A program made the position numbers and the translations under genes. The notes beneath the pieces are model-generated. The model was not told the origin of the DNA and ran no database searches. It worked only from the letters and a program-made list of their open reading frames with translations. 64,000 bases of DNA, taken from contig JAPOPM010000098.1 in assembly GCA_026712905.1 (NCBI GenBank), positions 10,234-74,233 of the forward strand, given 5' to 3'. Positions 3,622 through 59,274 of the stretch are shown here, piece after piece (the first letter of the stretch is position 1; each line of letters opens with the position of its first letter). The stretch comes from Deltaproteobacteria bacterium (GTDB lineage: Bacteria; Desulfobacterota; Binatia; UBA9968; JAJDTQ01).

Positions 3622-5076
3622 CTATCGGTCTGTCACCACCCAATGGTCCATGAAGTCACGCACCCGCATCGTTGCCAGGACGTCGCGTGACGCGCACGTC
3701 CGGAGTATCGCGTCGCACTGGGCCGCGGGAAGGTGCGCGGTCAAATGGCGCTCGAACTTCTCTTCCAGTAGCGGCACGGCTTCGCCCCGGCGCCTGCGGT
3801 GGCCGATGGGGTAGGGCACTTCCACCCGCGCCGTGGCGCTGCCGTCCTTGAAGTGCACCTGAACCGCGTTGCCGATGGCGCGCTTGTCGGGGTCCATGTA
3901 GTCGACCGTGAATTGCGGGTTCTCCCGCACCTCCATCTTGTCGCGCAGCGCGTCGATGCGCGGGTCCCGGGCCACTTCGTCCTCGTAGTGCCGCGCGGTG
4001 AGCTCGCCATGGATCAGCGGCACCGCCACCATGTACTGCAGGCAGTGGTCCCGGTCCGCGGGGTTGTCCAGCGGTCCGGTCTTGTCGATGATGCGCGAAC
4101 CCGCTTCCTGGGTCTCGAGGACTACGCGCTCGACGTCGTCGAGGCGGTCCTTGACCGCGCCGTGCAGTTCCAGCGCCGCCTCCACCGCGGTCTGGGCGTG
4201 GAACTCCGCGGGGAAGGAGATCTTGAACAGCACGTTTTCCATGACGTAGCTGCCGTAGGGCTGGCTGAACGTGAACGGCCGGCCGTTGAACAGCACGTCG
4301 TAGTAGCCCCAGCCCTTGGCCGAAAGCGCCGACGGATAGCCCATCTCGCCCTGGCGCGCCATGAGCGCCAGCCGCACCGCCCTGCCGGCGGCGTCGCCGG
4401 CGGCCCAACTCTTGCGCGAGCCGGTGTTGGGCGCGTGCCGGTAGGTGCGCAGCGCGCCGCCGTCGATCCAGGCGTTGGACAGCGCGTTCACCACCTGTTC
4501 TTCGTCGCCGCCGAGCATGGCCGCCGCCACCGCGGTGCTGGCTACCCGCACCAAGAGCACGTGGTCCAGCCCCACGCGGTTGAAGCTGTTCTCCAGCGCC
4601 ATGACGCCCTGGATCTCGTGCGCCTTGATCATGCCTGTCAGCACGTCGCCCATGGTGACGGCGCCGGCCCCGTCGCCCGCGCGGCGGTCGAGGTAGTCCG
4701 CCACCGCGATGATCGCGCCCAGGTTGTCCGAGGGGTGGCCCCATTCCGCTGCCAGGAAGGTGTCGTTGAAGTCGAGCCAGCGGATCATGGCGCCGATGTT
4801 GAAGGCGGCCTGGACCGGGTCCAGCTCCCAGGCCGTGCCCGGCACGCGCACGCCCCCGGGCATGACCGCGCCGGGCACCACCGGTCCCAGGAGCTTGGTG
4901 CATGCTGGAAACTCGAGCGCCGCCAGGGCGCAGCCCAGGCTGTCCATGAGACACAGACGCGCGGTCTCCCGCGCCTCATCGGAGAACGGCCCGGCGGAGA
5001 GGGCGTAGGCGGCCATGTCGGAAAGGACCGCGTCGGGCCGGGGCCGTTGGGCGTCGCGCACGGAAACGTCAGTCAT
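3622..5076 (-). CDS. prpD: 2-methylcitrate dehydratase
   Basis: [63 protein letters not shown] motifs. Confidence 0.96.
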
Positions 5077-5095
5077 GGTGAAAAAGGGTTCGGGG

Positions 5096-5977
5096 CTATT
5101 CCTTGCTGAACAGCGCGTCCAGCTTCTGCTCGTAGGCGTGGTAGCCGAGCACGTCGTAGAGCTGCTCGCGGGTCTGCATCCGCTCGGTCAGGCTGCTCTG
5201 GGTGCCGTCCTGGCGGATGGTGCGGTAGACGTCCATGGCGGTCTGGCTCATGGCGCGGAACGCGGACAGGGGATAGAGCACGAGCCCGACCCCGGCCTCC
5301 CTGAGCTCGTCGACGCCGAACAGGGGCGTCTTGCCGAACTCGGTCAGGTTGGCGAGCACCGGCACCTCCACGTTTTCGCAGAAGGCGCGGTAGTGCCCCA
5401 GCGTGTACACTGCCTCGGGGAAGATCATGTCCGCGCCCGCCTCGACGTACCGCCGCACCCGCTCCAGCGCCGCGTCCAGCCCTTCGCTGGCGAACGCGTC
5501 GGTGCGCGCCATGATCACGAACGGTTCGTCGGTGCGTCCGTCGGCCGCCGCCTTGATGCGGTCCACCATCTCGTCGGTGGAGACGATTTGCTTGTTGGGC
5601 CGGTGGCCGCAGCGCTTGGCCGCGACCTGGTCCTCCATATGGACCGCGGCCGCCCCGGCCCGGATCATTTCGCGTATGGTGCGGGAGATGTTGAAAGCCG
5701 TGCCCCAGCCGGTGTCGATGTCCACCAGCAGCGGCAAGGGGCTCGCCGCGGTGATCCGGCGCACATCCTCGAGCACGTCGTTCAGGGTGGTGATGCCCAG
5801 GTCCGGCTGGGCGAAGGAGGCGTTGGCCACTCCCGCACCGGAAAGATAGAGCGCGCGAAAGCCCTGGCGCTCGGCCAGCAGCGCGCAGTAGGCGTTGATG
5901 GCGCCCACCACCTGCAGCGGGCGTTCTTCCCGCACGGCGCGCCGGAACCTGGCTCCGGGTGATTTCTCGTGTTCCAT
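5096..5977 (-). CDS. prpB: Methylisocitrate lyase
   Basis: [41 protein letters not shown] motifs; start [12 protein letters not shown]; adjacent to prpD. Confidence 0.96.
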
Positions 5978-6009
5978 GTCTGCCTTGTCCCCGCTTGTCC
6001 CGGCGTGGC

Positions 6010-6660
6010 TCAGAAATAGGACAGGTCCAGGGCGCCCACCCGCTGGAGATGGGTGATGTCGCCCCAGGTCTCCAACCCCCAGGTGCCGTCCTGGAACTTG
6101 AAAAGGTTGACGCTGGCGTTCTTGAACGAAAAGCGCCGGGGTGCGTCCAGCGGGATGGACAGGGTGTGCCGGAACAGAGCGCTCAGGACGCCGCCGTGGG
6201 TGACCACCATGATGCTCTTGCCCTCGTGGCGCCGGGCCAACACTTCCAGGCACTCCATGTTGCGCGCGGACTGTTGCCGGAAACTCTCTCCCGACGGCAC
6301 CGCGTGGTCCGCTCCGCCCTTGCGGTGCTCCTCGTACTCCGTCGGGTAACGTTTACGGATCTCGTCGCCGTCGAGCCCCTGAAAGATGCCGAGGTTGCGC
6401 TCGCGCAGGCGCGGGTCGGACACGACCTCATGTCCGGTCTTTTCCGCGATGGTCCTGGCGGTCTCGTAGGCGCGCCCCAGGTCGCTGCTGTAGATGGCGT
6501 TGCAACTGTCCGGAGTGAACCGCTGCGCCAGCGCTTCCGCCTGCGCGCGCCCCTTGGCCGTGAGCGTGCTGTCGAGGTGCCCCTGGCGCCGCCCCTCCGT
6601 GTTCCACTCGGTCTCGCCGTGCCGCACGGCGATGACGTAGGTCGCCTCCATGCCGGACAT
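6010..6660 (-). CDS. Histidine phosphatase (phosphoglycerate mutase) family protein
   Basis: [31 protein letters not shown] motifs. Confidence 0.92.
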
Positions 6661-18090: not shown

Positions 18091-18218
18091 GCGGTTTTCG
18101 GTCCGAATCCAGCCCTCGCGGCCGCGGGACGCGCTCGGCGGCCACGAGGAACGTGGCACTGATCCACGCGTAAAATCGCAGGCCGGGTCTCCGTCCGAGC
18201 CGGAAGGAGTTGGAACGC

Positions 18219-18566
18219 ATGGACGTCGATGTCAAGTGGGGCAGGAAGGGCGAGATCGTGATCGCCATGCTGGTCGGTCGTTTCAGCAGCGCCAACGCCG
18301 CGCTGTTCGAGCGCCTGTTGGAGAACGGTGTCGATTCGTCCGACGACGCCCTTATCCTGGACTTCGAGAACGTGACCTTCCTCAGCAGCGCCGGACTGAG
18401 AGTCGCTCTGACCATCGCCAAGAAGTTCAACGGGCCGGGGAAGAAGTTCGGCATATGCGCGCTCCGGGAAGGGGTTCGCGGCATTGTCGAAGTCAGCGGC
18501 TTCGACAAGGTCATCCCGGTCTACGATTCGCAGGTTTCGGCGGTGGAGGCGTTCGAAAGCGCCTGA
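18219..18566 (+). CDS. STAS domain anti-sigma-factor antagonist
   Basis: LILDFENVTFLSSAGLR motif containing the phosphoacceptor Ser. Confidence 0.9.
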   Translation: MDVDVKWGRKGEIVIAMLVGRFSSANAALFERLLENGVDSSDDALILDFENVTFLSSAGLRVALTIAKKFNGPGKKFGICALREGVRGIVEVSGFDKVIPVYDSQVSAVEAFESA

Positions 18567-50990: not shown

Positions 50991-51992
50991 TTACAGCGGT
51001 TTCCGTCCGATGGCCAGGGATGACGTGAACGGCGGCGGCAACTCTATCCGCCCTGCGTCCGTCAGGCCGCCGCGCTCGAACCAGCCCGTGACATCCTCCC
51101 GCGTGTAGCAACGTCCACCCTCGGTTGTCAGCAGCATCAACAGGCTGAACACCGTTCCCGCGTCGGTCTCCGCGCGGCTTCCACCCAGAATGTGGTCCTT
51201 GATGACCAAGCGTCCGCCCGGAACCAGCGCGCCGGACAGTTTCTCCACCAAGGCTTGATTCGTGGCGTGGTCCTCACCGTGGATGATGTTCGACAGGAAG
51301 ATGACGTCGTGGCCCCCGGGAACGGCGTCCCTGCGGTAGTCGCCGGCCACGCATTCCATGCGTGCGGCGACTTCGGACCCGGCAACGTAGCGTTCGGTAA
51401 CGCGCAGGGTGCCGGGCAGATCGTACAGGGTCGCGTGCAGCTCCGGATAGCGGCGGCACAGGGCGATGGGATAGGTGGCGGGGCCGGGTCCGATGTCCAG
51501 CAGGCGCCGCGCCTGGCTGAGTTCCAGGAGATCGGCGACGGCCTCGGCATCGCCCCGCGCCTTCACCAGTGAGTCCATGGCGTTGATGAAGATCGCGGTT
51601 TCGGCTTCGTCCTGCTGGTACATGTCCGGCACGCGCGCGGGCCGCCCGTCGCGCACGGCGTCTTCCAGCTTGCCCCACGCATCCCAGGACAGTGCATCGA
51701 AGCGGACCATGCCGCTGAAGTCCCTGGACGACGCACTCGCCAGGTAGGTGGCCGACAGGTCGTTCAGGCGGTAGCCGGCGCCGTCCCGGTCGAGGAGGCC
51801 GAGGACCACGAGTGCTTCAAGCAGCAGGCCCATGGCTCGGGCATCGGCGCCCACGTCCGCGGCCAGTGCCGCCGCGTCCGCGGTATGGTGCTGCAGCGCG
51901 TCGAACACGCCGAGGCGCACCGCCGCCTGGAGGATGCGTGCCTCCACGTAGCCGCCCGCGATGCCCGCCACCCTTGCGAAGCCCCCGCTCAA
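50991..51992 (-). CDS. SAM-dependent O-methyltransferase (dimerisation + Methyltransf_2 domains)
   Basis: AAVRLGVFD.L, LLDIGPGP, YDLP, GDY..D, FLSNIIH; TTG start overlaps the upstream stop. Confidence 0.9.
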   Translation of the reverse strand: MSGGFARVAGIAGGYVEARILQAAVRLGVFDALQHHTADAAALAADVGADARAMGLLLEALVVLGLLDRDGAGYRLNDLSATYLASASSRDFSGMVRFDALSWDAWGKLEDAVRDGRPARVPDMYQQDEAETAIFINAMDSLVKARGDAEAVADLLELSQARRLLDIGPGPATYPIALCRRYPELHATLYDLPGTLRVTERYVAGSEVAARMECVAGDYRRDAVPGGHDVIFLSNIIHGEDHATNQALVEKLSGALVPGGRLVIKDHILGGSRAETDAGTVFSLLMLLTTEGGRCYTREDVTGWFERGGLTDAGRIELPPPFTSSLAIGRKPL

Positions 51993-53437
51993 AACGGCTC
52001 CACCACCCGGTAACTTCGGCTCTTGGGCTTGATGGGGGCGAGGATGCCCATCTTGACCAGGCCGCGGATGTCGCGGTAGGCGGTGTCGCGGTCCACTTCG
52101 GCGATCCTCTGGTAGTCGGCGGTGGACAGGGCCTTTCCGTGGGACAGGGCGTATACCAGCAGCCTTTGTTGGCGCGGACCGAGCCGCGAGCGGTTGAAGC
52201 GGTTCAGCCATGTGAGGGTTTCGTCGTCGTAGATGGGGGTGTTGCGCAGGGTCACGGTGAAGAAGAAACCCTCGGTGTCGAGGTCCGGCGGATGCAGGGC
52301 GTTCTGCTCCATTTGCTGGAACATGCGCGGCACCCCTTCACCGATCTCGCGCATGTAGCCCAGATCGGAGAGCACGCGCACCAGCAACGGGTTGCGCGAG
52401 AAGTGCACGCGCTCCTGCCGCTTCAGGTGGTTCAGGGTGACCGGCGCGGGCAGGGAGCCGGGGCTGCGCACCTCCAGGCGGTCGTCGAACATCCACACCT
52501 CGATCTCCGCGCCGGTGATGGCATAGTCCCGGTGCGCCACGGCGTTCACCAGGGCCTCCTGCCAGGCGAATGAGGGGTATTCCAGGCGTTCCTTGAAGAA
52601 GAGATCGTGCAGCACCATGCGCTCGCGAATGTGTTCCTTGATCCGGCCTACCGCCTCGTCGATGAGCACCCACAGCGGTTGCTCGATGCGCACACGCTTG
52701 ACCACGTTCAAGGACTCGCCGTAGCGCCGCTCGGTACCTTCGTACTTGACGAAATCGACACCGCAGCGCGGGTGCCACCGTACGGGCTCCTTGGCGAACA
52801 GCAGCAGGGCGGCCATGGAGATCTGGGGTTGCTCCGCCGGCCCGCTCACGAGGTGGTACGGGCGCGCCAGCGCCGCTCGCGGGTCCGCGCCCACGCCGAT
52901 CCGTTCGCTAAAGGACTCCAGCGCCACCAGGTCCAGATCGTCCCATGTGGCATTATGGATATGCTGGCGTTCGAAAGAGTACGACAACTTGGCTTCCTGC
53001 AGCCGCCGTATCTGTTCGGGAGGGACCGCGGGATTCTCCGAGGCCACACGGTAGAAGGTACGGCCGCTGGCCACGCGGCGCACTTCGAGACCCGGCGTCA
53101 CTTCGAACCGGAGAAGCAGCAGGTTGCCGATGTCGATGCGCTCGTACAGGGGATGGAGAGGTGGGTTGAGCAGTCTCCGTGGGACTTCGCCGAGCTCGTG
53201 GATTTCATCCTCGGAATAGGGCACGCCGGTGAGACTCTTGTCGGGCTCGACCCCCACCAGCAGGACGCCCCCGTCGGCGTTCGCCATGCCGTCGAGAAGG
53301 CGCGCGATCTCTCTCGCGAGGTCGCGCGGCCGTTTGGTCTGGATCCCGCGCTTCTTCTGGTCGTAGGCGCTGATGAACTCGAGGAACTGGCCCCGGTCCT
53401 CCTTCAGCAGCGTTTCTAGTTCACGTCCAGGCATCAT
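51989..53437 (-). CDS. AlbA_2-like + HATPase_c_4 + HTH ATP-binding protein (divergent N-domain)
   Basis: MANADGGVLLVGV, WQEALVNAVAHRDY, FDDRLEVRSPG, SRNPLL, GEGVPRM, C-terminal HTH. Confidence 0.9.
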   Translation of the reverse strand: MMPGRELETLLKEDRGQFLEFISAYDQKKRGIQTKRPRDLAREIARLLDGMANADGGVLLVGVEPDKSLTGVPYSEDEIHELGEVPRRLLNPPLHPLYERIDIGNLLLLRFEVTPGLEVRRVASGRTFYRVASENPAVPPEQIRRLQEAKLSYSFERQHIHNATWDDLDLVALESFSERIGVGADPRAALARPYHLVSGPAEQPQISMAALLLFAKEPVRWHPRCGVDFVKYEGTERRYGESLNVVKRVRIEQPLWVLIDEAVGRIKEHIRERMVLHDLFFKERLEYPSFAWQEALVNAVAHRDYAITGAEIEVWMFDDRLEVRSPGSLPAPVTLNHLKRQERVHFSRNPLLVRVLSDLGYMREIGEGVPRMFQQMEQNALHPPDLDTEGFFFTVTLRNTPIYDDETLTWLNRFNRSRLGPRQQRLLVYALSHGKALSTADYQRIAEVDRDTAYRDIRGLVKMGILAPIKPKSRSYRVVEPF

Positions 53438-53473: not shown

Positions 53474-54640
53474 TCACCGGGCGTGGTCGCCTTCGAGTCG
53501 CAGCACCTCGTGGATGATTCGCGCCGCGGACACGAGGTCGTTGACGTCCAGCCATTCGTGCACCGTGTGGATGTCGCGCATCCCGCTGGCCAGGTTGGCG
53601 ACCTGGAGTCCTCTCTTGTTCAAGACGTTGGCGTCGCAGCCGCCGCCCTTGGCCACGGTGTCCACGGCGAATCCCAGGTTGCGCGCGGCCTCGTGCACGC
53701 GCCGGACGATGGCGGTGTCGTGGGGAACGTCCATGCGGTCGTATTCCCGCACGATGCGGGCTTCCACGCGCGCCTCGTGAACGCGGCCGTCCAGTTCCAC
53801 CGCGGCGCCGGCGGCGGCCTGTCGGAGACACTCCTGCATCGTTTGCGTCTGCCGTTCGAGCTTTTCCTCGTCGTGGCTGCGCACCTCACCCGTGAGCACC
53901 ACGCGGTTGGGCACGATGTTCACCGCGGTGCCGCCGCTCACCAAGCCGAGGTTGGCGGTGGTCTCGTCGTCGATGCGTCCCAGCGGCATGGCGGCGATCC
54001 CCTGGGCCGCCACCTGAATTGCGCTGATGCCGCGTTCGGGGCAGATTCCAGCGTGGGCCTCCAGGCCGTGGACCTCGAACTCCAGGTGGTTCACCGCCGG
54101 CGCCTTGGTGATCAGGAACCCGATGGAGTCGCTGTCGAGCACGAGGCCGGTCTTCGCGCGCACGAGGCCGAGGTCCAGATGCTTGGCTCCCAGGAGCCCC
54201 ACCTCCTCGCATATCGTGAACACGACGTCGATGTCGCCGTGGGCAACGCCGTCCTCGGCCAGGGCCTCGATCACCTCCAGGATGATGGCGATGCCACTCT
54301 TGTCGTCGCCGCCGAGAACGGTCCGTCCGTCGCTCCGGATAACGTCGCCCTCCACCACGGGCACCACGCCCTCTCCGGGCGCTACCGTGTCCATGTGCGC
54401 GGAAAGAAGCATGGGTTCCGCTCCGGCGGTGGCCCCATCGAAGTGGGCAACCAGATTCCCCACCTCGCCGCCCACCGCGGACCCCGCATCGTCCATGAAT
54501 ACCGTGGCCCCCAAGGACTCGAGGAGCTCCCGCAGGCGCGCCGCGATGGCGCCCTCCCGGCGCGACAGGCTATCGATCCGAACCAACTCCAGAACGCGTT
54601 CCGTGAGGCGCGTCTTGTCGATCAAGGAAAACTCCTCCAA
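53474..54640 (-). CDS. M20/M25/M40 family metallopeptidase (peptidase T-like)
   Basis: SAHMDTV.PG, LGGDDKSG, CEEVGLLGA, AHAG..PERG.SAI, GGGCDAN, IHTVHE. Confidence 0.93.
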   Translation of the reverse strand: MEEFSLIDKTRLTERVLELVRIDSLSRREGAIAARLRELLESLGATVFMDDAGSAVGGEVGNLVAHFDGATAGAEPMLLSAHMDTVAPGEGVVPVVEGDVIRSDGRTVLGGDDKSGIAIILEVIEALAEDGVAHGDIDVVFTICEEVGLLGAKHLDLGLVRAKTGLVLDSDSIGFLITKAPAVNHLEFEVHGLEAHAGICPERGISAIQVAAQGIAAMPLGRIDDETTANLGLVSGGTAVNIVPNRVVLTGEVRSHDEEKLERQTQTMQECLRQAAAGAAVELDGRVHEARVEARIVREYDRMDVPHDTAIVRRVHEAARNLGFAVDTVAKGGGCDANVLNKRGLQVANLASGMRDIHTVHEWLDVNDLVSAARIIHEVLRLEGDHAR

Positions 54641-54766
54641 ACCGATTTCGCCTTGGGCGGCGTGGATGTATGCAGTGAACGGTCAGGCCACGCGCCCGCG
54701 CAATGTTGCGCGTGGGCTCGGGCGGCACGCAGTGTACTACAAAGCACGCGGGTAGGTCCATGTGGC

Positions 54767-54783
54767 GCAACAAATTTCGTTGC
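54767..54783. promoter_or_regulatory. Short palindrome in an AT-rich divergent promoter region
   Basis: GCAAC-AAATTTC-GTTGC followed by ATTATTTTAAT. Confidence 0.35.
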
Positions 54784-55007
54784 ATTATTTTAATGAGTGA
54801 GTCATTTCAGATCAAGGATCCCTGGCTCAGCTCACTTTTTCGCAAGGAACATTCGCGAATCGTATAGCGAAAGAGGCGGTCGCGGCCGTCTGGGACGGCT
54901 CGCCAGTTGGATAGCTCGATGCCCTCTGGTATCATTCGCGCGGCCAGATGGCTCACCGAACCGACGAATCGCGGATGCCCAGGACCCGACATCTTGAGGA
55001 GGGTAAC

Positions 55008-56777
55008 ATGCAACACCCCGGAACCCGCGGCCGTGCGGACATTCGCTACCAACCCGATGAAAAACCACCCTTGATGTTGACGGCCGGCCTTGGCCTTCAG
55101 CTTGCGATTCTCTGCATCTCCGGGATCGTTCTGACCCCCGCCATCGTCATCCGGGCGGCGGGCGGGAGCGAAGGGTTTCTTTCCTGGGCGGTGTTCGCGG
55201 CCGTTGCCATAAGCGGCCTCACCACGGTGCTCCAGGCTGTGCGGCTTGGTCGCTTCGGCACCGGCCACGTGCTGCTGATGGGCACTTCAGGCGCGTTCAT
55301 CGCGGTCTGTGTGACGGCGTTGGTTCAGGGGGGACCGGCGATGCTCGCCACCCTGGTCCTGGCCTCGTCTTTCTTTCAGTTCATCCTGTCTTCGCGGCTG
55401 GCGCTGCTTCGGCGCATCCTCACTCCGGCGGTAGCGGGGACCGTAATCATGCTGATCCCGGTCACGGTCATGCCCATCATCTTCGACATGCTCGACGACG
55501 TGCCGAAGGGGTTCCCCGTGTCCGCGGCGCCGCTGAGCGCCCTCGTGACCGTGGCGGGGATTCTTTGCATCGCGCTCAAGGCCACCGGATCGCTGCGTCT
55601 GTGGGCCCCGGTCATCGGCGTCGTCGTGGGCTCCGTCGTGGCCGGAGGGTTCGGCCTTTATGACACGGGTCTCGTGGCCAGTTCCGCGTGGGTGGGGCTT
55701 CCGCACGGGGACTGGCCGGGTCTGGATTTGGGTTTTGGCGCGACCTTTTGGGCGCTCCTGCCCGCGTTCGTGTTCGTGACCCTGGTAGGAGCCATCGAGA
55801 CCATCGGTGACGGCGTGGCCATCCAGCGGGTCTCCTGGCGCGGCGCCCGGGCGGTGGATTTCAGGGTGGTGGAGGGTGCGGTGGCGGCCGACGGTGTCGG
55901 CAACCTGCTTTCAGGTCTCGCCGGAACGGTGCCGAACACGACCTACTCCACGAGCATTGCCGTGACCGAGTTGACGGGAGTCGGCTCACGCAACGTCGGC
56001 GTCGCCATCGGGATCATCTTCATGTTCCTGGCCTTTCTTCCCAAGGCGCTGGCGCTCATCCTGGCGATTCCGGCGCCCGTGGTGGCCGCCTATGCCACGG
56101 TGCTGCTGGCCCTGCTGTTCGTCGTTGGCATGAAGGTGGTGCTCCAGGAAGAGATCGACTACCGCACCGGCCTCATCGTCGGGGTTTCGTTCTGGGCCGG
56201 AGTCGGCTTCCAGAACGGGGTGATCTTCCCCGAGTACTTCGGCGGTTTCGCCAGCGGGCTGTTGCAGAACGGCATGACCGCGGGCGGGCTGGTGGCCATC
56301 CTCATGACCGTGTTCGTGGAGTTGACCGCGCCGCGCCCGAGCCGCATCGAGGTGGAATTCGGCGTGGAGGCGTTGCCGAAGATCCGCGAGTTTCTCGCAG
56401 GCTTCGCTTCACGCGGGGGTTGGAACAAGGCGACGGCGGATCGCCTCGACGCGGTGGCCGAGGAAACGCTGCTGACCCTTATGGGACAAGATGTGGCGGG
56501 CGAGGGTAGGCGGCGGCGCTTGCGCTTGACGGCGCGCAAGGAGAGCGGCGGCGCGCTCCTGGAATTCGTCGCCGCCGTGGAGACCGAGAACATCGAGGAC
56601 AGCATGGCCCTGCTGGGAACCGGGCCGGTGGAGGCGCCGGATGAGCACGAGATATCTCTCCGGCTGTTGCGTCACCTCGCCTCCAGGGTGCACCATCAGC
56701 AGTATCACGGTACGGACATCGTGACCGTGCACGTCGACGCCGTGGAAACGGGCAACCCGCGATCGAACGATTCGTGA
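55008..56777 (+). CDS. NCS2 (xanthine/uracil/ascorbate) permease fused to a C-terminal HATPase_c_2-like domain
   Basis: L.GLQ, LMGTSGAF, ETIGD, ADG.GN..SGL.G..PNTTYSTS NCS2 signature; ~145 aa soluble C-terminal extension. Confidence 0.88.
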   Translation: MQHPGTRGRADIRYQPDEKPPLMLTAGLGLQLAILCISGIVLTPAIVIRAAGGSEGFLSWAVFAAVAISGLTTVLQAVRLGRFGTGHVLLMGTSGAFIAVCVTALVQGGPAMLATLVLASSFFQFILSSRLALLRRILTPAVAGTVIMLIPVTVMPIIFDMLDDVPKGFPVSAAPLSALVTVAGILCIALKATGSLRLWAPVIGVVVGSVVAGGFGLYDTGLVASSAWVGLPHGDWPGLDLGFGATFWALLPAFVFVTLVGAIETIGDGVAIQRVSWRGARAVDFRVVEGAVAADGVGNLLSGLAGTVPNTTYSTSIAVTELTGVGSRNVGVAIGIIFMFLAFLPKALALILAIPAPVVAAYATVLLALLFVVGMKVVLQEEIDYRTGLIVGVSFWAGVGFQNGVIFPEYFGGFASGLLQNGMTAGGLVAILMTVFVELTAPRPSRIEVEFGVEALPKIREFLAGFASRGGWNKATADRLDAVAEETLLTLMGQDVAGEGRRRRLRLTARKESGGALLEFVAAVETENIEDSMALLGTGPVEAPDEHEISLRLLRHLASRVHHQQYHGTDIVTVHVDAVETGNPRSNDS

Positions 56778-56795: not shown

Positions 56796-56872
56796 TGGTG
56801 GCGGTGGCTGGACTTGAACCAGCGACGCCGCGGATATGAGCCGCGTGCTCTGACCAACTGAGCTACACCGCC
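56796..56872 (-). tRNA. tRNA-Met (anticodon CAT, elongator type)
   Basis: Reverse complement GGCGGTGTAGCTCAGTTGGTCAGAGCACGCGGCTCATATCCGCGGCGTCGCTGGTTCAAGTCCAGCCACCGCCACCA; paired G1-C72. Confidence 0.95.
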
Positions 56873-57147
56873 ATGTGGGAAAAGAACGCTCGCGAGGGAC
56901 TGACGCCCGAGGCCTCCATCATAGAACGCGCCCCGCGAACATGCAAGCCGGGACCCTCCGGGCCGCGCGTCACGTGCGCCTTGACTTGCAAAACTCCCGC
57001 GCCTTCACTATTAGACAGCGAAAGCAGCCGTTCTTTGTATGGATGGCTGCGTTGCCCCGAATCCGACACGACCTCCGCGATCCATGCCGGACGCACCGGT
57101 TCCTCCATGGACGATGAGCGTCGCGTCTTCCAAGGGAGGGTATCGTC

Positions 57148-58185
57148 ATGCGGGGTTGGGTCACACATGCTTTCAAGGACATGCGCCTGGAGGAGTTGGC
57201 GGAACCGGAGGGGCGGCCGGGCTGGGCGCTGCTGAAGACCTTGGTGGTGCAGCCTTCGGTGACGGAAGTTCAGCTCTTCTACGGGGAGCGCTCCAACAGC
57301 TACGAAAAGGTCAAGAAGAAGCTGGCCAAAGGACCGGAGCCCCTGTTCGGGCACGAGTTCTGCGCCGAGGTCGTTGAGATCGACAAGGACAACGGGTATG
57401 GCCTGGCCGTGGGTGACCGGGTGGGCGCCACGCACACGGAGATCGGCACCATCGGGCGGGACTTTCCCGGGCTCTTCTCCGAGTACGCGGCGGTGCCGCT
57501 GGACGCGCTCGCCAAGATTCCCGAGGGTATCAGCGACTGGGAGGTGTCGGCGCTCCAGCCCCTGACCAGTTGCGTGCACAACATCCAGGTGCTCGGCGTG
57601 ACCCTCGGGGACACGGTGCTGGTGCTGGGCCAGGGCGTCATGGGCCTCAACTCGGCCCAGGCGGCCAAGGCCGCGGGCGCGGACACGGTCATCGGCACCG
57701 ACATGCGGCCGGAGGTCCTGGAGTTGGCCAAGGAGCTCGGAGTGGACGTCACCATCGACGCCTCCAAGGAGAACGTGGTGGAGGCGGTGATGGACCTGAG
57801 CGGCGGCAAGGGCATTCCCTTCGTCATCGAGGCGGCGAGCGGCAGCCCGCAGATGGGACTGTCCGGCGGCGCCACGGTGTCGGAGGCGGTGGCGTGCGTG
57901 GCGACCGGCGGCAAGGTGCTCAGCATTCCGCACTTCCACGAACCCGTGACCCTGGACTTCAACTACCTGCGCGCCAAGCGGGTGACCTACATGTTCCCGC
58001 CGGAGCTGGCCCATCCCGCGGAGATGACCCTGGCAGCGCGGCTCGTGGCGCAGAAGCGTATCAACATCGATCCCATGATCACCCACAAGCTGGAAGGCAT
58101 CGAGAAGATGCCCGAGGCGCTGGAGATCACCGCCAACAAGTCCAAGTACGGCGCGCTGAATCCGGCGCAGGTGCGGTTCTCCTAG
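57148..58185 (+). CDS. MDR/zinc-binding dehydrogenase superfamily protein with atypical Zn ligands
   Basis: GHE, GDRV, SEY, GQGVMGL Rossmann motif; the canonical GICGxD and 4-Cys lobe are absent. Confidence 0.85.
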   Translation: MRGWVTHAFKDMRLEELAEPEGRPGWALLKTLVVQPSVTEVQLFYGERSNSYEKVKKKLAKGPEPLFGHEFCAEVVEIDKDNGYGLAVGDRVGATHTEIGTIGRDFPGLFSEYAAVPLDALAKIPEGISDWEVSALQPLTSCVHNIQVLGVTLGDTVLVLGQGVMGLNSAQAAKAAGADTVIGTDMRPEVLELAKELGVDVTIDASKENVVEAVMDLSGGKGIPFVIEAASGSPQMGLSGGATVSEAVACVATGGKVLSIPHFHEPVTLDFNYLRAKRVTYMFPPELAHPAEMTLAARLVAQKRINIDPMITHKLEGIEKMPEALEITANKSKYGALNPAQVRFS

Positions 58186-58266
58186 TCGGGACCCCGTGGT
58201 AGACTCGCGCTCGACGATTCCCGATATGAAATCGGACGCAATCAAGTAACCCTGAAGGAGGCAACC

Positions 58267-59274
58267 ATGGACGCCAAGATCATTGACGCTGACGGGCACG
58301 TCAGGGACCGGGACGCGGACATCCGCGCCCATATGGAAGATCCCTGGAACAAGCGCGAGGGCTCGCTGCTGCCGTCGGACGAGTGGGATTCGAGCATGTT
58401 CGGCACCCTGGGCATGAACATCACCGACGTGCCCACGCGCCTCCGCGACATGGACACCGAGGGCATCGAGATGTCGGTGCTGTTTCCCACCGGAGCGTTC
58501 CACGTGAACCGCATGCCGGAGAAGGCCTACGCGGGAGCGTTTTCCCGCGCCTACAACAACTGGATCTCGAGCATGTGCAGCGAGGCGCCGGAGCGGCTCA
58601 AGGGCGTCGGCGTGGCGCCTTTCCAGGACGTGCCCGCCGCGGTGGCGGAGATCAACCGCGCAGTCACAAAGCTCGGCGTGGCCGGTATCACCGTGGGCAC
58701 CTTCGGCATGAAGGACCACTTGGGACAGGAGCTCTTCTGGCCCATCTACGAAGAGCTCGAGCGGCTCAACGTGCCGCTGCTGATCCATAACTCGCGGTCG
58801 GGTCCGGCGGGGGACAACCGTTTCGACACCTTTTTGTTCAAACACACCATCGGCCGTCCCTTCGAGACCTTGCTCGACTGCGCCGCACTGATGTACGGCG
58901 GCGTGCCGGAGCGGTTCCCGAAGCTGCGCATCGCGTTCCTGGAGTGCGGTGTCGGCTGGGTGCCCTACTGGATGGACCGGATGGACGAAGAGTACGAGCA
59001 CCGGCAGTCCGAAGCGCCGCTGCTCAAGGCCATGCCCAGCGAGTACATGAAAGCAGGGAACTGGTACTACGCGGCCGAGCCGGAGGAAGAAAGCCTGCCC
59101 TACGGCATCGAGCGCATCGGGGACAAGAACATCGTGTTCGCGTCCGACTATCCCCACTGGGATGGCATGTTCCCCAACGTGACCAAGACCATCAAGGAAC
59201 GGACGGACATCTCCGAGGACTTCAAGGCCAAGTTCCTGGGCGACAACGCCAAGGCGCTTTACGGCTGGAACTAG
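58267..59274 (+). CDS. Amidohydrolase_2 family protein
   Basis: IDADGH, D.EGI..SVLFPT, IHN, AFLECGVGW, FASDYPHWD. Confidence 0.92.
   Translation: MDAKIIDADGHVRDRDADIRAHMEDPWNKREGSLLPSDEWDSSMFGTLGMNITDVPTRLRDMDTEGIEMSVLFPTGAFHVNRMPEKAYAGAFSRAYNNWISSMCSEAPERLKGVGVAPFQDVPAAVAEINRAVTKLGVAGITVGTFGMKDHLGQELFWPIYEELERLNVPLLIHNSRSGPAGDNRFDTFLFKHTIGRPFETLLDCAALMYGGVPERFPKLRIAFLECGVGWVPYWMDRMDEEYEHRQSEAPLLKAMPSEYMKAGNWYYAAEPEEESLPYGIERIGDKNIVFASDYPHWDGMFPNVTKTIKERTDISEDFKAKFLGDNAKALYGWN

Follow-up and report, generated by a model that had tools for sequence, protein, structure and literature searches.

Why should a transporter of the NCS2 family end in a domain that resembles an anti-sigma factor? The question is raised by a gene on a stretch of 64,000 nt from a Deltaproteobacteria bacterium of the class Binatia (contig JAPOPM010000098.1; this whole stretch is called the window below). 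The gene is located at 55008..56777, stop codon included, and, according to the list of open reading frames (ORFs) and the translation, encodes a product of 589 amino acids (aa). The first-pass annotation had read it as a nucleobase permease with a degenerate RsbW-like domain, a transporter-sensor that relays purine or uracil uptake to a partner-switching system. Partner switching is a textbook mode of sigma factor control, and few non-sigma outputs are known. We found that fusions of an NCS2 permease with a domain of the RsbW fold are a conserved, unannotated family, and the evidence leads us to a tentative reading in the opposite direction, in which a partner-switching cassette would regulate the permease. 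All features of the fusion gene given below are on the forward strand (+).

An RsbW-type fold predicted for the C-terminal tail

Beyond the permease, the protein has an extra ~145 aa. The domain proper comprises ~135 aa (residues 444-577, 56337..56738) and was assigned by an AlphaFold2 (AF2) model, Foldseek, and VIA-align as a cytoplasmic “W domain” with the RsbW/SpoIIAB fold and without ATP-binding boxes. The last ~145 aa of the window's own sequence did not match any Pfam family, STAS included, and did not reach the gathering score of 27.4 bits of PF13581 (HATPase_c_2). The NCBIfam models yielded only RsbA_anti_sig, with an E value of 0.02. The matches of the tail in the PDB that were obtained with phmmer and with the family profile, e.g. 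to trichohyalin-plectin and Notch ankyrin, were at chance level and were discarded. We aligned 24 orthologous tails from genome loci (alignment A1), and 14 of these matched PF13581 below threshold, the best one with an E value of 7.7e-5. The kinship of the tail to RsbW is therefore visible only through structure comparison and through Pfam scans performed ortholog by ortholog.

The AF2 model of the tail, which was built with alignment A1, has a pLDDT of 78 and a pTM of 0.75. Foldseek placed UsfX, RsbW, and SpoIIAB on top (E value 6.6e-6, probability 1.0). With VIA-align, B. subtilis RsbW was matched with a Z score of 15.6 and an rmsd of 2.3 Å over 111 residues. The ten best chains were all of the RsbW/UsfX/SpoIIAB type, including the RsbW domain of Rv1364c (Z scores from 15.6 to 12.9), and SiaB ranked eleventh with 11.5. 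Below these were the Leptospira response regulator LvrC (10.7) and the CA domains of histidine kinases, with Z scores of 8 or lower. The structure neighbors of the ESM Atlas's own model were all HATPase_c_2 proteins, plus a cluster of permeases with the same tail, mainly from Chloroflexota. The structural check proposed for the last ~145 aa, i.e. AlphaFold followed by Foldseek, thus returned a GHKL fold, and the RsbW-like domain postulated behind the last transmembrane (TM) helix is borne out by the models as the RsbW/SpoIIAB subtype of that fold, devoid of ATP-binding boxes.

For the ATP-binding boxes, the reference was an alignment of the genuine RsbW proteins encoded next to the Nitrospirales orthologs (alignment A2). 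These true RsbW proteins, one of which is also encoded in the genome of the window, have an N-box of EELITN or DELATN, a G1 box of DNGPAF or DDSGIAF, and a G2 box of GGLGI or GGLGV. Alignments A1 and A2 were found by hhalign to be collinear over 124 columns; the probability was low (8.6%), and the residue equivalences lean on how well they match the secondary structure elements that the model predicts. EELITN is aligned with EETLLT, so that the Mg-binding Asn is replaced by Thr or Ser. The G1 and G2 positions of the tail read xGEENLQD and E(V/I)SLRLL, i.e. there are no glycine boxes, and DNGPAF and GGLGI have no counterpart. This agrees with the replacements of the N-box Asn and the GxG box (EETLLTL; EISL) that had been noticed at first reading. 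Hence, the tail is predicted from its sequence to be unable to bind ATP in the usual way.

The altered positions are well conserved in their own right. In the window, the N-box position is EETLLTL (residues 485-491, 56460..56480), the G2-box position is EISLRLL (residues 549-555, 56652..56672), and the last β-hairpin is HQQYHGTDIVTV (residues 563-574, 56694..56729), which is nearly invariant across phyla and paralogs. Among 38 family members, the column of the N-box Asn is occupied by T, S, A, C, or V, and both Glu residues are invariant. The residues E485, E486, R552, and H563 are invariant in the family.

An NCS2-type transporter with a non-canonical binding site

The identification of the membrane part as an NCS2 permease was confirmed. 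Pfam Xan_ur_permease (NCS2/NAT, PF00860) matched residues 28-400 (55089..56207) with 153.6 bits versus a cut-off of 27, and the membrane part runs to about residue 440. UapA, SLC23A1, and UraA were found by phmmer among the solved structures. In the full-length AF2 model (pLDDT 82, pTM 0.78), the helical membrane domain extends to residue ~440, and behind it comes a separate α/β domain. The fusion protein is a 14-helix NCS2-type secondary transporter, and its binding site is non-canonical.

The NAT signature in TM10 is [Q/E/P]-N-x-G-x-x-x-x-T-[R/K/G], and it is accompanied by a Q-H pair in TM1, as established for UapA and XanQ. The protein of the window does not conform to this signature. Compared with UapA, QH in TM1 is changed to QL, and Q-N-N-G in TM10 is changed to T-S-I-A; the signature position is YSTSIAVTELTG (residues 313-324, 55944..55979), aligned to FAQNNVVIALTR of UapA, so that Q-N of the signature reads T-S. 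The terminal T-G is retained (TR in UapA, TG here), and so is the acidic E...D pair of the substrate site in TM8, which is kept in this clade (ETIGD, residues 264-268, 55797..55811, aligned to ECIGD of UapA). The scores were below the NCBIfam cut-offs for the xanthine, uracil, and generic NCS2 models, e.g. 188 versus 414.15 bits for pbuX (TIGR03173) and 32.9 versus 40 bits for NCS2_1 (NF037981).

The substrate-site motifs were found to depend on the clade, with ETIGD, QTISA, RTVSG, or QTISG in TM8 and YSTS, YSTT, TTVG, or RPNG in TM10. The tail motifs are constant across the same clades. With neither the His of TM1 nor the Q-N of the NAT signature in TM10 preserved, the purine or uracil substrate assumed in the first-pass annotation is doubtful, in spite of the retained E...D pair, and a nucleobase substrate is not assured for this permease.

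A conserved family with a patchy distribution

A search with the tail yielded 2665 clusters at 90% identity, and Xan_ur_permease was present in all 120 of the clusters listed. A profile search of 1.84 billion representatives yielded 704 clusters. In the best 150 of these 704, the domain is located at the C-terminal end of a protein of ~580 aa, or the match is a shorter piece. Seven short or odd matches were inspected. Four start inside the last membrane helix and are therefore fragments, one looks misassembled or aberrant, and two are ambiguous: P0148 may be a stand-alone form or cut, and P0165, whose first residue is L, is probably cut. No convincing stand-alone form, other fusion partner, or clear bridge to ordinary RsbW was found among the matches listed or inspected. 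In the sources that give names, family members are currently called “hypothetical” or “purine/pyrimidine permease”.

The carriers found so far are all metagenome-assembled genomes (MAGs), from Binatia, Nitrospirales, Alpha- and Gammaproteobacteria, Acidobacteriota, Nitrospinota, Spirochaetia, and Gemmatimonadota. Many of their bin names we take to stem from sponge-microbiome studies. The occurrence is patchy, ranging from 1 of 61 genomes in a gammaproteobacterial order and 2 of 121 in the window's own phylum to 19 of 49 in one alphaproteobacterial order, and the protein tree of the fusion is discordant with taxonomy. The number of fusion copies per genome ranges from one to five. The genome of the window has a second paralog on another contig (C22; L068:8334-10121), with the substrate-site motifs RTISS in TM8 and YTTA in TM10 and without partner-switching neighbors.

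A partner-switching cassette next to the fusion gene in three clades

The neighborhoods were analyzed by mapping the genes in 39 loci, clustering the neighbors, and searching all six frames with hidden Markov models (HMMs) for recurrent neighbors. In Nitrospirales, the order is mreBCD-PBP2-rodA, the permease gene, a convergent RsbW gene, and genes for a STAS protein, a REC-PP2C phosphatase, a Peripla_BP_6 protein, and a HAMP-HisKA-HATPase_c kinase. The genes from STAS through the kinase were found in 13 loci, and the RsbW gene in 14. In the alphaproteobacterial locus L010, the homologous kinase, binding protein, and REC-PP2C genes, together with a GPP34-family gene, are located divergently upstream of the permease gene, and in the alphaproteobacterial locus L005 the kinase and binding protein genes are retained beside it. 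In a second Binatia genome (locus L037), whose fusion belongs to another clade of paralogs, the stop codon of the permease gene is followed after 90 nt by the start of a STAS gene (motif YISSAGLR), and the latter by a GPP34 gene. Nitrospirales, Alphaproteobacteria, and L037 are three separate clades on the protein tree.

The cassette thus consists of a true RsbW kinase, a STAS protein, a REC-PP2C phosphatase, a LivK-like periplasmic binding protein, and a HAMP histidine kinase. The genome of the window contains a complete five-gene cassette that is homologous to that of Nitrospirales, on another contig (C69), in which the boxes of the kinase are intact and the serine of STAS is present (YISSAGLR). 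The survey of homolog neighbors for STAS, PP2C, and adenylate cyclase genes, which had been suggested at first reading, gave a mixed outcome: STAS or PP2C genes adjoin the fusion in three clades and are absent from its vicinity in most loci, and no cyclase gene is nearby.

No sigma factor, DNA-binding protein, cyclase, or other output gene was found in the cassette neighborhoods examined. This bears on the view that the tail is a membrane-tethered anti-sigma factor, which holds a SigB/SigF-type sigma factor at the membrane until it is released. The closest structural relatives of the tail, UsfX, RsbW, and SpoIIAB, are indeed anti-sigma factors. However, none of the neighborhoods examined contains a sigma factor gene, a result that concerns the neighborhoods, as no genome-wide search for SigB/SigF-type factors was made. 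We regard a tethered anti-sigma factor as highly improbable.

Several further genes of the switching type were observed. A UbiD gene followed by a pair of STAS and GPP34 (GOLPH3-like) genes is present on contig C227 of the window's genome (L055:6862-7940) and in L037 (8517-9580), where the permease gene lies between UbiD and the pair. In L010, the GPP34 gene (5023-5676) lies between the REC-PP2C gene and the permease gene. Possibly, GPP34 also belongs to the switch or is one of its targets. In L010, the stretch from GPP34 to the permease gene further encodes 124 aa of a second SpoIIE/PP2C domain (5673-6044, -), apparently what is left of a phosphatase gene that was duplicated or broken. The genome of the window has five small STAS genes. 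One of them is an orphan single-domain gene in the window itself (18210-18566, +; Pfam STAS, E value 6e-14), located 37 kb upstream of the permease gene among unrelated neighbors (OCD/mu-crystallin, AMP-binding ligase, UbiD).

Co-occurrence of fusion and cassette

As a marker for the cassette we used the REC-PP2C ortholog, defined as a full-length match to alignment A4 with more than about 440 bits. In the sample of 121 genomes from the window's own phylum, two have both the fusion and the cassette and 119 have neither; every other PP2C match in this sample had 281 bits or less. In the gammaproteobacterial order (61 genomes), one genome has both and 60 have neither. Neither sample contains a genome with the fusion only or the cassette only. 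In the alphaproteobacterial order (49 genomes), 12 genomes have both, seven the fusion only, four the cassette only, and 26 neither, which corresponds to an odds ratio of 11 and a Fisher p value of 5e-4, uncorrected for kinship. The REC-PP2C ortholog was also present in 13 of the 15 further carriers from other phyla with E values of 1e-90 or better, matched over its full length in 11 and over only the first ~245 positions in two.

The idea of an obligate pair of fusion and cassette, with which two of the samples agreed perfectly, was dropped after seven carriers without the ortholog and four ortholog-containing genomes without the fusion had been found in the third, richer sample. The association is strong and not obligate, and kinship and shared habitat could inflate it.

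Proposed regulation of the permease by the cassette

The best explanation of the whole, which we favor tentatively, is that the cassette regulates the permease via docking of the STAS protein to the tail. The binding protein and the histidine kinase would sense an external compound, and the kinase would control the REC-PP2C phosphatase. The phosphatase and the true RsbW would together determine whether the serine of STAS (YISSAGL) is phosphorylated. STAS proteins are the normal binding partners of RsbW-type proteins. The tail appears in the model to have kept the RsbW fold, and it has probably lost the usual ATP binding, which suggests that it may be a docking site for the single-domain STAS protein of the cassette. 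Unphosphorylated STAS would bind to it and switch transport on or off, and the permease would be the output. Since conservation is far higher in the tail than in the substrate site, and since a genome may contain up to five paralogs, one cassette could control several permeases through the common tail. In addition, a regulatory handle fits better than a substrate sensor, because the tail motifs are fixed while the substrate site varies by clade. A more specific proposition is that the dead RsbW domain is the missing output of a sigma-less orphan five-gene cassette, with unphosphorylated STAS gating paralogous permeases at the tail; this is possible, although we lean towards doubting it.

The opposite direction, which had been proposed originally, treats the permease as a transceptor. 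Its conformational cycle would alter the hold of the tail on STAS or on a true RsbW and would thereby report uptake to a switch that acts elsewhere. The evidence from neighborhoods and co-occurrence is the same for both directions, and the replaced key residues of the substrate site would fit a sensor without efficient transport. However, a dedicated sensor is already part of the cassette, in the form of the periplasmic binding protein and the histidine kinase, and none of the genes nearby encodes an output such as a sigma factor, DNA-binding protein, or cyclase. With the permease as a further input, nothing would be left to serve as the output. Several paralogs with different binding sites per genome are also explained more simply as multiple regulated targets. 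As the cassette comes with a sensor and shows no output apart from the permease, we favor regulation of the permease by the cassette over the reverse, and we consider a transceptor unlikely. Of the relay from uptake to partner switching that had been suggested, the link to partner switching gains support, and the direction does not. The link is backed by the neighborhoods in three clades and by the co-occurrence with REC-PP2C, and not by the arrangement in the window's own genome, where the cassette lies on another contig.

Several observations weigh against regulation by the cassette. The permease locus of the window has no adjacent STAS, PP2C, or RsbW gene, the cassette being on contig C69, and about 25 of the 45 contexts have no adjacent partner-switching gene. 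Among these are all six further fusion copies, one in the same genome and five in three others, which have no partner-switching genes within ~9 kb. The window's genome also contains an orthologous UbiD-STAS-GPP34 stretch without any permease gene between them, so that the STAS adjacency in L037 may be an accident of insertion. The phosphatase ortholog is missing from 7 of the 19 alphaproteobacterial carriers and is present in four genomes that have no fusion. Shared habitat and horizontal transfer, without functional coupling, could be the source of the co-occurrence. Lastly, the invariant polar residues E485, E486, R552, and H563 could equally line a pocket for a small molecule.

Some of these observations are compatible with a tail that is independent of partner switching, i.e. 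a module for dimerization or stabilization, or a former ATP pocket that binds a cytoplasmic metabolite and feeds back on transport; the association with the cassette would then stem from a common habitat and gene pool. Dimers are formed both by RsbW-type proteins and by NCS2 transporters. Such a tail would fit the lack of adjacency in most loci and the seven carriers of one order that lack the phosphatase ortholog. It would also fit the invariant polar residues E485, E486, R552, H563, N528, D531, and Y566 at the positions of the N-box, G1, G2, and the last hairpin, which in true GHKL proteins presumably surround the bound nucleotide. In contrast, homologous cassette genes adjoin the fusion in three separate clades with differing arrangements, and the co-occurrence is strong in three taxon samples. 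Moreover, a pocket that senses the transported substrate would be expected to differ wherever the substrate site differs, whereas the tail is constant. An independent tail therefore appears rather improbable to us, and regulation by the cassette is retained as the preferred explanation.

If this explanation is true, a transporter with a kinase-side fold would be a direct membrane output of partner switching, and a widespread cassette without visible output would acquire a concrete target. It would represent a new post-translational control of secondary transporters. To our knowledge, the STAS domain fused to SLC26/SulP transporters never had a clear RsbW-like partner; the fusion would complete the symmetry with these transporters, which carry the STAS half of the pair. 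On this reading, about 2,700 protein clusters that now go only under the names “purine/pyrimidine permease” or “hypothetical” possess a regulatory domain that has escaped annotation, and probably a substrate other than a nucleobase. The family seems to be common in uncultured bacteria of several phyla, and, if many of the bins do originate from sponge microbiomes, as presumed, compounds derived from the host may be taken up under the control of this system.

Gene start and flanking features

The reading frame of the fusion gene is part of an ORF that extends from 54948 to 56777 (+). A start at 55008 is better than one at 54948, because a Shine-Dalgarno motif, GGAGG (54998..55002, read from the sequence), is located 5 nt upstream of the ATG at 55008 and the orthologs have lengths of 581-589 aa. 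An AT-rich promoter had been noted and is weakly backed: the intergenic region is relatively AT-rich, with a GC content of 53-55% at 54700-54900 versus 63-74% in genes, and the promoter itself is a single sigma-70-like consensus match (TGGATA, 16 nt, TATCAT; 54908..54935). The neighboring tRNA-Met was verified by ARAGORN. The tRNA-Met (CAT) gene (56796..56872, -) is convergent with the fusion gene, and its 3′ end lies 19 nt past the stop codon. All sequence strings quoted in the first-pass annotation were recovered in the translation of 55008-56777.

Upstream of the fusion gene are genes for a putative AlbA_2/HATPase_c_4 regulator (51989-53437, -) and an M20 peptidase (53474-54640, -). This pair is syntenic with the Binatia locus L001 (3554-6514). 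The downstream sides differ, with the tRNA-Met gene in the window versus a gene for a giant Calx-beta protein (>2455 aa) in L001. Other neighboring ORFs resemble alcohol dehydrogenase, amidohydrolase, and a Tct-type transporter, as judged from their sequence. These neighbors, including the M20 peptidase and the AlbA_2/HATPase_c_4 regulator, give no clue to the substrate. A 764-aa ORF at 56863-59157 (-) was rejected as a gene and is a high-GC shadow ORF; it is antisense to the ORFs 57148-58185 and 58267-59274, which look alcohol dehydrogenase- and amidohydrolase-like by sequence. Such a shadow ORF misleads gene calling by the longest ORF. In the high-GC loci, genes were called by codon-position GC scoring and six-frame HMM searches.

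Other neighbors recur in parts of the family. In one clade from Nitrospinota, Gammaproteobacteria, and Spirochaetia (L020, L021, L023, L026, L029, and L030), genes for a conserved TRAP transporter (DctP, DctM) are located upstream of the permease gene and a YCII-family gene directly downstream; the TM10 motif of this clade, RPNGA, is very different. In alphaproteobacterial loci, the permease gene is directly followed by a gene for a very large type I polyketide synthase (KS-AT-DH..., >2600 aa), and in a Gemmatimonadota locus such a gene precedes it. This adjacency was observed in seven loci (L010:8544-16397, L005:8526-12422, L011:8524-16398, L022 and L027:8553-16415, L017:851-2695, and L031:55-6669).

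Comparison with known systems

The tail shares its predicted fold and the order of secondary structure elements over the whole domain with the anti-sigma factors RsbW, SpoIIAB, and UsfX (PDB 6m37, 1th8, 8ih8), and, as for these proteins, the fusion co-occurs with STAS and PP2C genes. In contrast to them, it is fused C-terminally to a 14-helix transporter, has Thr or Ser instead of the N-box Asn, lacks DxGxG and GxGxG, has an invariant motif of its own (HQQYHGTDIV), remains below threshold in Pfam, and has no sigma factor encoded nearby. With canonical NCS2/NAT transporters (UapA, 5i6c; UraA, 3qe7; XanQ), the fusion shares the Pfam match and the E...D pair of TM8 (ETIGD versus ECIGD). It differs from them in QL of TM1, in T-S-I-A of TM10, in NCBIfam scores below the cut-offs (pbuX, NCS2, NCS2_1), and in the additional tail of 145 aa.

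The closest architectural parallel is found in the SLC26/SulP transporters with a C-terminal STAS domain, which likewise combine a transporter with a cytoplasmic C-terminal domain from the partner-switching toolkit (PMC8256260). The 7+7 inverted-repeat architecture is common to SLC26 and SLC23/NCS2 (PMC6497670). Yet the domain fused here is from the kinase/anti-sigma side (GHKL) and not STAS, i.e. in effect the complementary partner. Systems with a PP2C phosphatase, an RsbW-type kinase, a STAS protein, and a non-sigma target are represented by SiaB-SiaC of Pseudomonas (PDB 6kko) and by HenR, STAS, and a glycosyltransferase of Anabaena (PMC13555669). SiaB is itself among the structural matches of the tail, with the Z score of 11.5 given above. 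The proposed target differs from theirs in that it would be a membrane permease that carries a dead copy of the kinase fold.

A precedent for the interaction of a STAS protein with a transporter is MlaB, which is reported to bind and regulate the ABC transporter MlaFEDB (bioRxiv 10.1101/2020.04.27.064196, PMC7367683). Unlike the mechanism proposed here, MlaB acts on a different class of transporter and binds to the ATPase subunit, and the abstract mentions neither an RsbW-like domain nor a switch by phosphorylation. In the open-access literature searched, we found neither a fusion of NCS2 with RsbW nor a transporter described as such a target of partner switching. Thus, SLC26/SulP transporters with a fused STAS domain, non-sigma partner switches, and MlaB-MlaF are already known, and the new element is a catalytically dead kinase-side fold that is fused to a transporter.

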